Source: Saccostrea echinata (Eukaryota). From it: a stretch of 64,000 bases of DNA. This document shows positions 20,535-33,251 of this stretch, piece after piece. Numbering within the stretch: position 1 is the first letter of the stretch; every line of letters begins with the position of its first letter. The notes below the pieces were generated by a model. That model made no database searches. It was not told where the DNA came from and saw nothing but the letters and a program-made list of their open reading frames with translations. The stretch is taken from contig NW_026889814.1 of NCBI RefSeq assembly GCF_033153115.1, positions 186,001-250,000 of the forward strand, read 5' to 3'. Position numbers and translations under genes: made by a program.

Positions 20535-20912
20535 TATCTTGGATCTTTCCAAACATTTCTGTGAAAAAAGCATAGTCCAGAATCGTTTATATTTCTCTTT
20601 CCTGCGATTAGAATTGTTTCTATTCAGCATTTCCGGTTCCTCTATCCACCACAGTTGTCTGCTTGTTTCAGAAGTTATACAAGGGCGACTAAGGCAATGT
20701 TGACACTCCTCTGCTTCCTGATTTTGATGAATAATATAATCCTCAAATTCTTGGTCACTATCCTGAGAATTACTCTGGTCAGCTCTTTCTTCTATCGGTA
20801 CTTCTTGGAAATCCCTATTCTGATGATTAAAAAGATGGCAAATTGTTTCTCTTTGAGTTTCAGTGACTCCAATTGCTAAAATAGATCTCTCCTCAACTCC
20901 TTCCATTTTCAC
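20535..20912 (-). pseudogene. KolX-like second protein of a Kolobok-type transposon (Cys-rich, P2X7-ballast-like), C-terminally truncated
   Basis: ECQHCLSRPCIT...N.RRKEKYKRFWTML, then after a frameshift HRNVWKDPRY. Resembles the CIT / N..R..Y..F pattern of KolX. Lies head-to-head with the transposase. Unrelated sequence begins at about 20534. Confidence 0.6.
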
Positions 20913-21544
20913 TATGGCCTATGTCTAGCTAAAAATTTAGCCTTACCCATGATGTATGAGGGTACATTAGGGCAATGATGTACACTGCATGTGTAAATTA
21001 TTTTGCAACTGATGAAAGACCATTTTAGTTGTTTCTTACATCTCGGCATATCTACTCTATGATTTAGTCACTGGGACATAGTTTTCCTACCATATGTATC
21101 CCATAAATTTAAACACTGAAACATAATTTTTTTTGGATGATTATCCTGCAAGAACCCCCTTGTAATTTTGCACTAATCATGATTATGTCAACTACAGATG
21201 AAAGATCAGGAGTTTTGGCTTGAAGATGCCTAAAATGCTGAGAGGATTAGGTGTCAGTTGGAGCCATTATCATTATGGGGGTATCAAAATATTAACACAG
21301 ATATGAGTACAATTAATTATTATATTTATATCATTAAAATTGAAAAGGTGATGCGTTAACTTATATAATTTTTGTTTATCGTGAAAGCAAAAATAAAAAT
21401 AAGTTTTAGTAAGGAAACTGTAGTACAAAAACGTTAAGACTTTTACCTTGATTCACAATACATAATAGATGGAACATACCAATTCTAAAACAAAGGTTAG
21501 GGATCCATTTACTGTTCTATATCATTGATTTTCATTGAACCATA

Positions 21545-22515
21545 ATGGCAAGTCCAGCAAAAAAGAGAAAAAGAAATCCAAGTTTCCGCATTGAATTCGC
21601 AGAAGATGAGAATCAAAAACATTCTGTATCGGAAAATTTGCAAAAGATCAGGAATCAGTTAACCAGCAGATTAAACAAGCCTATGGGAAATCTACAGGTT
21701 ATCGAACATTTGTTCAAACTTTGGTTTGATAAAACAGGTTGCGGTCAGGAGAATGATCAAGAGGTGCCACCTGCACCTAGTACCTACGTAAATTTTCAAA
21801 AGAAAGATGTCAATCACAAAGTATTTTTGTGTGCAGAACAATTTCTGCAGAGACTTGTAGAAGTGGCAGAACACCACAGAGGATATTTTAAAAAAAATCT
21901 AAAAATCAAGAAAATACAAAAAAGCACAGGTTGTTTCTGCACGATTTTCGAGTGGTGGAGCTTGTAATCACACTTTTCTATGGTCGCCCTCCCCATTTTT
22001 ACCAAATGTGGAGTATTTGGTAAACAACAGAGTAAACCACTCATTTGCCTGCAGTGGTGTGCTACCATCCCATTATGTTGATGGTGCTGGCATTGGAAAG
22101 ATTTCAAAAAGTATATACAGGAAGAATATGAGGAGTCCATATATGCATCTGTTCTAAAAGAAATTGCCTCATACGAGAATGAAGATCTTGATAGTGTAGA
22201 TTCGGAAAAGAAAAAAAAAATTATGAACATCTGAAGGATCAAGACGTTACAATAGGTGTTCATGCCCATGACAGGAATCTATCTATTAATAAATTTATTA
22301 GAGAGGAATGTGAGTCTGAAAGTCAAAATGACACGTGGCATGCTGTAAAATCTGTGAAATCTGCTATGAAAAAAATTCCAGTGGATCAGCATATTTGGAA
22401 GGGAAACCTTGGTCATTCCATCTAGATGATAAAGTAGAACCCGTGGCTACCCAGTTCCACTGGGCTATCAGGAACTGTGAGGAAAATCCGGAGAAACTTC
22501 AATCCTTTCTATAAA
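21545..22515 (+). pseudogene. Kolobok-type DDE transposase, N-terminal part (disrupted)
   Basis: NLS-like PAKKRKR. Downstream frames give LWSPSPFLPN..YLVN, GVHAHDRNLSINKF (second Asp), QNDTWHAVK (DxxH) and FHWAIRNC..NPEKLQSFL. The first-Asp region seems deleted near 22200. Confidence 0.8.
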
Positions 22516-22625
22516 GGATGGATTCTTGTCAGCATTTTACGTCGTCAATGAGTCTCCATAAGTTATGCAAGTCGTAAAATGCAAAATTCATATTTAATCA
22601 CACTGAAGGAAAAACTATAAGTTAA

Positions 22626-30311: not shown

Positions 30312-31650
30312 TTTATTGTCCCTCGCTTTCGCGAAAGTGAGGGGATATTAAATCTCATTTGTCTGTCAGTCTGTCCGTCTGTCTGTCAAAAAAACTTTAA
30401 CCTTGGCCATAACTTTTGAGTAAGAAGAGATTGGGCTTTTGTATTTCACATGTACATTACTTGTGACAAGACCTTTCCAAATATACTGTGATTTTTTACC
30501 CCGTTACCTTGGCCTTGAAGTTTGACCTACTTAAAAAAAACATTACCTTAAATTGGTCTTAACTTTTGAATGAGAAAAGATAGGACTTTCATATTATGCC
30601 TGTTCATTACCTGTGACAAGACCTTTCAAAAATATACTATGACTTTTGACCCCTTGATTTTGACCTACTTTTCAAAAAAAATTAACGTTTCTTTAAATTT
30701 GTCATTAAATTTAAATGAAAAAAGATAAGGTTTTCATATTAAATATGAACATTACCTGTAAAAATACCTTACCAAATGTACTATGCTTTTTGATCCCATG
30801 ATCATGACCTTGAAGTTTGACCTACTTTTCAAAATTTTTATCTTTGTAACTTTTGATTGAGAATAGTTAGGGCTTTCATATTTGACCTGTGCATTAGTAG
30901 TGACAAGGTGTTTCCGAGCATGCTATATGTTTTTACCCTTTTACCTTGACCTTCATGTTTGACCTAAATTTCAAAAATTTTAACTTTGGTGATTACTTTT
31001 GAATGACATATGATAGGGTGTTCATGTTTGACAAGTGCATAACTTGTGTCAACATGTTTCTGAATATGCTATAATATTTGACCCCGTAACCTTGACCTTC
31101 CAGTTTGACCTAATTTTCAAACATTTCATCAGTTTGTTTACTTTTGAAGAAGCAAAGATAGGGCATTCATATTTGACAAGTGCATTACCTGTGACAAGCA
31201 ATTTCAAATGTACTATGATTTTTAATCCCATGACTTGACCTTGAAATTTGACCTAATTTTTAAAAAAGTTTAGCATTGCTAATAACGTTTGATTGAGAGA
31301 AGATATAGTATTTACATTTGACATGTGCATCACCTGTTTCAAGACCTTTCTGATTGTGTACTCTGGTTTCTGATATTTTTTTTTTTACATGTGCATCACT
31401 TGTGAGAAGATATTTTGGATTTTATTATGATATTTGTCCTCATGACCTTGATTTTGAAGTTTGATGTAGTTTTGAGAAGTTATAGTCTTTGCCATGACTA
31501 TTATTAATTCAATAATTTATGTCTTTTTTGTATGATGCACAGACAAGACAGGACGAACAAAAAAGACAGTTACAATATGTCATAAATAATGGCATCCCAT
31601 CCACTACAATATCGAAAGCCGGGAACCACAATTCTTTGAATTTGCTTGTT
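30312..31650 (+). mobile_element. Helentron-associated non-autonomous element (HINE/DINE-1-like) with ~145-bp satellite array
   Basis: 5' hairpin GTCCCTCGCTTTCGCGAAAGTGAGGGGA and (GTCY)n microsatellite. About 7-8 tandem units (TTTGACCTA recurs every 138-157 bp). 3' subTIR AAAGCCGGGA plus hairpin AATTCTTTGAATT. Confidence 0.85.
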
Positions 31651-32799
31651 GTTTTCAAGACTCAGTCGACAAATGTAAAATATCCAATAATAACATAATA
31701 CCAGGGACTTATATGTATATAACTACATATACATGTATAAGCCTGTATATTAGTCCTTCTGATATTCATATATTAAGCATTGGATGTCTAGATTCATATG
31801 GCATGTTCACTATACATGTATATTGATTTCATGTTTATATCATAAATAATTTATTGAAATCTTTTCTAGTCTATGAAAATTTTATGTATGATTTTTCTCA
31901 TAATTTTTTGGAAGGTTTATTGTTTATTCCTGGTTATATTGAAGGTTAAGTTGCTTTGAATTAGTCCTGTGCATGTGAAGAATGTATGTGATAATTTTTC
32001 TGTAATTGCCACTAGAAAATTGATGTATTTTATTAAATTGTCAAACATAACTTATTCATAAGAATAAAATGACAGAGGAAATTCGAAATGAATTTTTTGA
32101 ATATCATTAGACTAAGTGTAAAATACCATAAAAATAGAATGTATAACTGGTAGAAATGAATGTATTTATGTCACACTTACACCAAATTGATATATCTTTG
32201 AGGAAGTAAAATCTTTCTTATAGACATTAAAACACTCTGTAAATTGAAGATTTCAGAAAGTATAGAGTAAATTCGGGCTATTTTTTTTTTTATTATTTGC
32301 CTGATTACTATATCTTTTTTACCTTGTAAATTAATCTTGAACCTTTGAATATTCATCAGACAAAACTCTAAATATTTGACATTATATGGTCAATTGTAAA
32401 AATTGAGATGAAATTTCATGTGAATTCATGAAAACTGACAATTTTGAAAGAAAATATCGAGGAAATTCGGATTAAATGTATTTTTTGAATATAAAGGATT
32501 TCATGTTATCTTTTCACCAGCTCATTTCATATGAATTAGTCATCAAAAATAAGTAACAACTTTAAATTTATGGTGAAAGATATTTTTTCAGCTAGCAAAA
32601 TTTATTCATATGCATGGATTTCAAAACTTCTCTGTGTAAAAGTAATATTTTTAGGAATGAGTTTCAAATGACCTTGACTGAAAATTAAAGGCGATGACAC
32701 CAAAGTTTTTGGATGTTAAAATAGTGTAAACAGTCTGAATATTGAGTATTCAGAAAATCAAGATTCTGCCATTATGAGAAATATGAGAAGAATCCATCC

Positions 32800-33251
32800 T
32801 TAAATATCATTCAACATTATAAAAACAACCATGAAGCATGCCACTCAACATCATGATGCAGGAAAGATCCAAATTATGAAATTTCAAGACAGGTTATAAC
32901 AGGTCCACGTGCAGAAAAACTTAAATTAGGAGTTATAAGAAATTCTGTTATCTTTAAAAATAACTTTGCCGGGACACATATTACGTTGAAAGTTTTAACA
33001 ACGTTGTAAATGTTTATCAGGACAAAAGAATTTCGTTTTCTGAAGATCAGTATAAAGCAAGAACTAACTTAGCAGTCTGTCACCGGAATGAAAATGTTGA
33101 CAGGGAATTTACTTCAGTCTGGCAACCAAACCATAGAATGCCTCGTCGTTTGAAAGGAAAGAAAAATCACAAAAAAATTACATATAACTTTCGGAAAAGC
33201 ATTTGGAATAGATACATTAAATCTGTGTACAGAGCAAGAAAAAGAAATTAA
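32800..33251 (+). pseudogene. Kolobok-type DDE transposase, C-terminal part
   Basis: LNIIQHYKNNHEACHSTS*CRKDPNY..., then after a frameshift DTYYVESFNNVVNVYQDKRISF...YKARTNLAVCHRNENVDR...RKRN*. Contains the catalytic Glu motif; in frame with QSFL at 22511 once the insertion is removed. Confidence 0.85.

Follow-up and report, generated by a model that had tools for sequence, protein, structure and literature searches.

Insertion of one transposable element into another is common in the repeat-rich genomes of bivalves, and the stretch studied here holds a deep nest of this kind. It comprises 64,000 nucleotides of Saccostrea echinata (contig NW_026889814.1, positions 186,001 to 250,000 of the forward strand, assembly GCF_033153115.1), which is C65:186001-250000 of the 923-Mb assembly and is called the window below; its proteins have named homologues in Pinctada, Mytilus, Tegillarca, Magallana and Owenia. 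At positions 4730-33641 lies a 28,912-bp footprint, of which 3,326 bp are the own sequence of a Kolobok transposon (the host) and 25.6 kb are inserts in it. Intact relatives of the host are 3.6-4.2 kb long, and its native length was about 3.8 kb. We hold with considerable confidence that 4730-33641 is one dead two-gene Kolobok, in whose transposase gene a TTAA was the entry point of a 10.3-kb stack of non-autonomous elements and whose second gene, likely a KolX gene, was cut by a 15.3-kb Helitron-like stack.

The transposase gene is read on the forward strand in two parts. Frameshift-aware alignment to P0003, an intact transposase homologue used as reference for both halves, places the 5' half at 21545-22515 (residues 11-395 of P0003), ending in TAAA at 22512-22515. 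The 3' half (residues 396-547), which keeps the VESFNN motif with the catalytic Glu, occupies 32800-33251 together with the TTAA at 32800-32803. Aligned separately, the left half is identical to P0003 at 242 of 320 positions and the right half at 121 of 147, with neither gap nor overlap between them, and the coding halves are contiguous in all seven paralogous loci examined (L011-L017). At the corresponding site L011 and L012 have one TTAA, L014 has TTAA and the four others have TTGA; the TAAA and TTAA that flank the insert at 22516-32799 are therefore taken as the two copies of a TTAA duplication, the first of them mutated. An earlier interpretation made from the letters of the window only (the sequence-only reading) had proposed that a transposase is split here by a 10.3-kb insert and that its halves should adjoin in intact transposases. 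Both points are borne out, and the HAHDRN, NDTWH and VESFNN...YQDKR...H.NEN motifs that it listed are present in the rebuilt protein. Removing the insert, however, does not restore a working transposase: relative to P0003 the left half still has four frameshifts and a deletion of ~140 nt near 22197-22200, which takes away the first catalytic Asp (TDARHGW), while in the right half a stop codon stands at 32854 and 13 nt are deleted at 32961. A Pfam search with the window's own protein fragments gave nothing significant.

The element carrying this gene reaches well beyond 20535-33251, the bounds proposed in the sequence-only reading, which overlooked the left 15.8 kb, more than half of the element, including the Helitron-like stack in the second gene. 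On the forward strand, the left end begins with AGGCCG and occupies 4730-5236, resembling the left ends of the family copies L148, L011 and L153; it is preceded by TTAA, the left target-site duplication, at 4726-4729. The right non-coding end, TAGGTC...CCGGCCT, lies at 33252-33641, where similarity to L012 and L152 stops, and the same end motif is found in intact relatives. The right copy of the duplication (33642-33645) reads TTCA in the window and TTAA in L011. The flank to the left of 4726 and that to the right of 33645 meet at a single TTAA in all five copies examined of a dispersed repeat that surrounds the host (L167 and L171-L174). The two flanks are thus halves of one empty site, which confirms that the host inserted at a TTAA. 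In addition, L011 has both host ends, 3.2 kb apart, within the same two flanks and with neither stack. The termini AGGCCG...CGGCCT obey the Kolobok 5'-RR...YY-3' rule. Most relatives have AG..CT ends, the exception being the L085/L086 family, which starts with AC and ends with GT or GA. A blind search for terminal inverted repeats (TIRs) of the host within 15000-20600 found none, because the left end is at 4730.

Several further observations concern the ends and their surroundings. The L085/L086 family, which departs from the RR..YY rule, is itself an intact two-gene relative lying between TTAA sites (L085 3345-7218 and L086 2753-6615). Every left end read bears GTATAAA ~11-15 nt inside (window 4744-4762, L011, L076, L079, L082, L085 and L148), usually with GCCAATC next to it, and right ends in the lineage bear TAGGTC in its place; the GTATAAA motif may serve the transposase as a site, or may belong to a TATA/CCAAT promoter that points inward, antisense to the KolX gene. 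The outer dispersed repeat is recognized at 4504-4725 and 33646-33790, with a 21-bp palindromic tandem near 4545-4606.

The second gene lies upstream of the transposase on the reverse strand. Its 5' two thirds, with one frameshift, occupy 20535-20906, an 87% DNA match to L148, which runs on into the C-terminus; the protein is 45% identical to its counterpart in L079, a locus with an intact two-gene relative. Family copies match this gene only from 20535, and the C-terminus is gone in the window, within ~307 bp of host lost at the 5236/5237 junction. The two divergent start codons are separated by a 638-bp spacer (20907-21544), close to the ~630 bp at which a Cys-rich open reading frame (ORF) had been noticed head-to-head from the letters only, and this spacer is likely a bidirectional promoter. 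Around relatives, 14 of the 16 ten-kb stretches fetched have the second gene in this head-to-head position beside the transposase, and the search for intact copies of this layout, which had been suggested beforehand, was successful, four intact families having spacers of 460-664 bp.

As to the family of the transposase, 104 matches were obtained when the genome was searched at the protein level, and many of them have open frames of more than 500 codons. In an alignment of 111 homologues, D231 (TDA), D297 (HDR), D319xxH322, E447 (VESFNN) and the H385/C393/C399 finger are 92-100% conserved; the family thus has the DDE catalytic set and the C/DxxH signature, the first Asp being deleted in the window copy. 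Kojima and Bao (2022, PMC9587614) define Kolobok by a TTAA duplication and RR..YY ends and describe the C/DxxH signature as common to Kolobok and MuDR; the Kolobok alignment in Data S5 of that paper includes Kolobok-16_CGi (Pacific oyster), Kolobok-1_MyEd and Kolobok-1_OwFu, with the same core. In a comparison by eye with this alignment, the core of the L079 transposase is nearly letter-for-letter equal to that of Kolobok-16_CGi. Judged from these residues, the host enzyme is assigned to the lineage of Repbase Kolobok-16_CGi, and the Kolobok identity suggested by the sequence-only reading agrees with the TTAA duplication, the RR..YY ends and the DDE core alike. A sequence search of the PDB with the transposase alignment gave no significant match, and the ESM Atlas gave no usable match for the transposase N-terminus.

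The insert in the transposase gene (22516-32799, forward strand, 10,284 bp) is a non-autonomous GGATGG...CCATCC element with inserts nested in it, bounded by the perfect 12-bp inverted repeat GGATGGATTCTT and the TTAA duplication. Its family is non-coding, with a native length of ~4.8 kb, and a second, uninterrupted copy lies in the window at 43874-48727 on the reverse strand, 11 kb from the first. The genome has 95 exact TTAA-preceded left ends of this family; TTAA stands ahead of all 18 other left ends read, and seven of eight fetched copies are TTAA-flanked at both ends, the eighth being cut off by the fetch. The element has no similarity to host-family ends and no transposase remnant in a tblastn search with P0003, and its longest stop-free frame is 110 codons. 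It had been described as a non-autonomous member of the host's own superfamily: a non-autonomous TTAA insert with RR..YY ends it is, whereas its membership is indicated only by the GG..CC ends and the TTAA, no sequence being common with the host. A module resembling HINE elements, composed of a palindrome, a GTCT microsatellite and 6.4 copies of a 146-bp unit, lies on the forward strand at 30310-31650 (ends approximate); it occurs in eight of eight fetched GGATGG copies, so the array was rejected as a private fifth insertion and counted as part of the family.

Comparison with other GGATGG copies defined two private inserts in this one. The first is a miniature inverted-repeat transposable element (MITE) of 579 bp at 22626-23204, with the TIR GAACAAGGTACGG; it has no target duplication and is inserted in TAA|TTT, the empty site reading AGTTAATTT in all 18 GGATGG copies. 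Its right flank is TTT in 15 of 15 loci, and its left flank in 13 other loci is AAA (ten) or TAA (three). Its ends, GAACAAGG and GAAGAAGG, agree with three of the four fixed positions of the Spy terminal 5'-GGANNNNG. With its insertion site and the lack of a duplication, this element follows the Spy pattern and is not a TTAA element. The second is a non-autonomous GAGAG...CTCTC element at 24181-29037, with a native length of ~4.5 kb, a TIR of 27-31 bp plus an inner inverted pair, and a TTAA duplication at 24177-24180 and 29038-29041. In four of six fetched copies of its family, both ends could be matched to GAG..CTC with a TTAA duplication, which also satisfies the RR..YY rule. Termini of the form GAG..CTC with a TTAA duplication are known from Sola3 as well, so the element could be Kolobok or Sola3. 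Thus, of the two further TTAA elements announced by the sequence-only reading, the GAGAG element has a true TTAA duplication and the 579-bp insert does not.

The GAGAG element is in turn interrupted by a tRNA-derived short interspersed nuclear element (SINE) on the forward strand at 25849-26202, with a tRNA head at 25854-25926, a (CAAT)n tail and the 14-bp duplication TCATATATCTAAAT at 25835-25848 and 26203-26216; this SINE is absent from six of six other GAGAG copies. The four nesting levels proposed earlier are therefore recovered as host, GGATGG element, GAGAG element and SINE, and the deepest path has five levels when the outer dispersed repeat is counted. Other tRNA-derived SINE copies lie in the window at 35147-35335, 37644-37944, 55040-55340 and 59064-59422; they represent at least two families with a common core of ~200 bp.

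The second gene is interrupted at 5237-20534 by a 5'-truncated Helitron-like element of HLE2 type on the forward strand, 15.3 kb with its inserts, recognized by Pfam DUF6570, Helitron_like_N and PIF1. Its frameshifted coding part (5237-10500) consists of an OTU remnant, DUF6570, Rep and PIF1 helicase, and in an intact paralogue (L187/L188) OTU, Rep and helicase form a single frame of 1883 aa, with a second ORF and a 3' end like those in the window. Short TIRs, a 3' stem-loop and T|T insertion are further marks of HLE2 elements; here the 3' hairpin end is near 20500-20534, with the stem-loop ACGGT-CAC-ACCGT, and 20534/20535 is a T|T junction. No 5' end is left in the window, and none was located in the paralogues either. 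The 5236/5237 junction, where a few bases overlap, has lost this end together with 307 bp of host, which points to a subsequent deletion at short microhomology. No endonuclease domain was detected in the element or its paralogue. Two other sequences lie inside it: a reverse transcriptase fragment of a long interspersed nuclear element (LINE) at 15057-16200 on the reverse strand (RVT_1, E 1.4e-15, ends not mapped), and an unclassified dispersed repeat of ~930 bp at 19163-20089, which has 90-91% matches in L103 and L104 and is not at this place in the Helitron paralogue L185. The second conserved ORF follows the helicase at 12736-13335 on the forward strand and also occurs in L185, L187/L188 and L193; its motifs TDSRG, GGICNL and DGVHP presumably reflect a resemblance to SGNH hydrolase, and Pfam gave no match for it. 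Another Helitron paralogue, L184 on C25, is broken at 3510-6567 by a transposase-like element whose ORFs measure 170, 320 and 286 codons.

The region has a second assembled copy at C16:22.61-22.65 Mb, which is ~99.8% identical to the C65 copy and suggests uncollapsed haplotypes. An older duplicate, the locus L011, lies ~160 kb further along C16 and differs from the window by 4.6-5.0% in the flanks and 4.8% in the transposase. Near window 14470 the near-identical C16 copy (L159 6122-7199) has an extra ~1.08 kb, a possible polymorphic insertion between haplotypes. The window also has an inverted pair of ~250 bp with 75% identity at 3077-3324 and 3560-3807; the stretch 3077-3807 is missing from L011 and is likely a MITE insertion.

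From these relationships an order of events can be proposed. First, the host entered a TTAA that lay within another dispersed repeat, duplicating these four bases, as the empty sites testify. It would then have decayed, and the region would have been duplicated ~160 kb downstream, the two copies now being ~5% divergent. The 4.8-kb GG..CC element landed in the TTAA of the transposase gene in the window copy only; its position is directly observed, and its landing in an already dead gene is the timing we favor. It was likely moved in trans by some TTAA-specific transposase. The Spy-like MITE and the SINE-bearing GAG..CTC element could have arrived before or after this landing. The HLE2 Helitron entered the KolX-like gene, again at an observed position and by a presumed mechanism, and a later microhomology deletion would have removed the Helitron 5' end along with 307 bp of the Kolobok. 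That the stack persists is likely due to the low cost of insertions into dead repeats.

The principal competing explanation starts from a still active, autonomous Kolobok at 20535-33251 that lost its function to the insertion of a non-autonomous relative; this relative later collected two TTAA elements. The insert does sit in a coding TTAA, with RR..YY ends and a TTAA duplication, as this explanation expects. However, the host extends to 4730 and one of the inner elements has no duplication, so that it is largely refuted on its bounds and on the MITE. Moreover, the window and L011 have in common the TGA at 32854 (CGA in L012 and L013), the length of an A run near 22370, a shift near 21920 and a Trp-to-Arg change in HWNEN. 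Because the insert-free duplicate has the same stop and frameshifts, the 10.3-kb insert probably came into a host that was dead by then, to judge from the lesions that the two copies share, and the proposal that a formerly autonomous element was inactivated by the insert is probably incorrect. On balance we consider a knock-out improbable.

Some results nevertheless weigh against our account of a single, already dead two-gene Kolobok. The stop that both copies have falls on a CpG and their common frameshifts lie in A runs, so each alone may have arisen twice, and L011 could lack the insert through precise excision. Divergence to the nearest fetched copies is 5.4-7.9% for the GGATGG element, 2.6-6.8% for the GAGAG element, 8.8-9.4% for the MITE and at least 13% for the Helitron; with the MITE at ~9% and the Helitron at 13% or more against 5-6% for GGATGG, there is no clean clock. 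An autonomous partner for either TTAA insert (GGATGG or GAGAG) was not found among the fetched loci. Pfam PF20700, "Mutator-like transposase", labels 15 of 20 aligned homologues of the transposase. As for the second protein, four to five Cys are kept instead of the seven conserved in the KolX ballast fold; its best structural match, described below, has a score within the range of chance arrangements; Foldseek with its model gave nothing at E <=0.001; and neither profile nor sequence searches of the PDB found P2X7 or any significant match.

The other explanations fare worse. That the left end at 4730 and the remainder are two neighbouring family copies fused by a deletion would account for the 307 bp of host missing at the 5236/5237 junction; since the outer flanks are the two halves of a single empty site in all five copies and L011 has both ends 3.2 kb apart within the same flanks, we give it very little credence. 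Equally hard to credit is that the host is a Mutator-like element (MULE), as the Pfam label would have it, although the C/DxxH signature common to Kolobok and MuDR (PMC9587614) lends this some sense. The window copy and most relatives have a 4-bp TTAA duplication and AG..CT ends, and the core matches Kolobok-16_CGi and Kolobok-1_MyEd in the Kolobok alignment of the same paper. Membership of the host in the MULEs was rejected on the duplication, the ends and this Kolobok-like core. Target duplications of MULEs are longer than those of the 4-bp TTAA type. Finally, an assembly artefact, for which one might cite the presence of the region twice at 99.8% identity (C65 and C16), is barely conceivable, as each junction has the footprint of its element class, matched by empty sites elsewhere, and both assembled copies agree.

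The nature of the second protein deserves separate consideration. A profile search with it reached 712 protein clusters at E <=0.001, and in an alignment of 141 sequences the metal ligands C68, C71, C76 and C152 are conserved at 98-100%, C73 at 77% and H172 at 93%, with no other conserved Cys. A model built from this alignment (pLDDT 88.5) placed the ballast region of rat P2X7 (6u9v_A) first of 48,161 chains, a weak match with Z 3.4, a root-mean-square deviation (rmsd) of 3.9, 76 aligned residues and 28% identity; with an earlier model from 22 sequences (pLDDT 67), P2X7 had ranked 15 with Z 2.4. Pfam P2RX7_C is matched, weakly, by three of 141 members (best E 0.005), and the ESM Atlas gave no usable match for the protein. 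A complex prediction for the transposase and KolX, run without alignments, scored 0.01 and is neither support nor evidence against. Because the P2X7 ballast is the match predicted beforehand for KolX, we take the second protein, with good though by no means complete confidence, for a diverged KolX that is poorer in Cys than the known seven-Cys form. Residues 1-58 of the L079 transposase and residues 7-33 of the KolX-like protein both have a conserved strand-then-helix at the N-terminus. For KolX-like residues 4-52, ribbon-helix-helix and ACT chains appear at Z 2.1-2.7 (rmsd 8-10 and Z no higher than 2.5 for ribbon-helix-helix), too weak for a fold claim, and Atlas and Pfam searches with the transposase N-terminal module were blank. 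The strand-helix module of the KolX-like protein might be a ribbon-helix-helix-like DNA-binding or pairing unit.

Taken as a whole, the locus holds a dead copy from a Kolobok lineage that Repbase already includes, and its nesting is deep but ordinary. It offers a worked example of how an element of ~4 kb grows into a 29-kb footprint with TTAA cut-and-paste, Spy-like, Helitron-like, LINE and SINE sequence, and since its junctions are backed by empty sites, repeat annotators can usefully be tested on it. Of more value is a by-product, the set of apparently intact two-gene relatives together with the 141-sequence alignment of the KolX-like protein.

Compared with systems described before, the inserts follow familiar types with some departures. 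Like the Spy transposons as characterized in PMC4122938, the 579-bp MITE has short TIRs and no duplication and belongs to the AAA|TTT manner of insertion; unlike the Spy consensus 5'-GGANNNNG, its end GAACAAGG fits three of four fixed positions, its site in the window is TAA|TTT and no transposase is linked to it. DUF6570 is given as a marker of the HLE2 group in PMC11417382, and the sequence at 5237-20534 agrees with the HLE2 (Helitron2/Helentron) elements outlined there in OTU, DUF6570, Rep, PIF1 helicase, 3' stem-loop and T|T junction; it differs from them in the deleted 5' end, the second conserved ORF after the helicase and the absence of a detected endonuclease domain. The 146-bp array has flanks of the type reported for Cg_HINE elements (PMC7492417).

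For the host itself, the nearest system is Kolobok-16_CGi. In Data S5 of PMC9587614, Kolobok-16_CGi, Kolobok-1_MyEd and Kolobok-1_OwFu share with the host family TDARHG.R..., H.HDRN, ND.WH, H..C...SRC..D.NYE and VESFNN, and as aligned there both the Kolobok-16_CGi group and the host lineage are without a CCHC finger after the first Asp. The label "Kolobok_16_CGi_2p", by its name, suggests that a second protein is already listed in Repbase. Since P0003 and the L079 family are only ~53% identical, the family of the host ranks as a sister of the L079 family, which resembles Kolobok-16_CGi, the window copy being a dead and insert-laden member. KolobokP, as presented in PMC9587614, is likewise a bivalve Kolobok with two genes; unlike it, the host lineage has neither long terminal direct repeats nor a His-Me nuclease, and its second gene is upstream and divergent. 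KolobokP was accordingly rejected, self-comparison of 24 loci and the window giving no long terminal direct repeats of 450 or 660 bp at the element ends, and intact relatives ending ~150-400 bp past the transposase stop with no downstream opposite-strand ORF for a His-Me finger nuclease.

The comparison with the Kol0/Kolobok0 lineage (type Kolobok-1_XT; PMC9587614) leads to a more speculative proposal. Like the host, that lineage has two genes, a TTAA duplication and RR..YY ends, and its KolX is described as a homologue of the P2X7 cytoplasmic ballast, to which the host second protein is weakly alike. We tentatively suggest, as a conjecture with the odds against it, that elements like Kolobok-16_CGi form a separate and widespread branch, in which the second gene encodes a reduced KolX: a P2X7-ballast-like core bearing one Cys/His zinc cluster, with the N-terminal strand-helix module in addition. 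If this is true, such a KolX is carried by at least 712 protein clusters outside Pfam coverage, and the intact intron-free copies in this genome would make its role directly testable and inform the origin of the P2X7 ballast. Unlike the seven-Cys KolX of Kol0, the second protein of the host has four to five Cys and a His together with that conserved N-terminal module, and its loss of Cys recalls, in a comparison by eye with Data S6 of the same paper, the KolX-like proteins borne by piggyBac elements.

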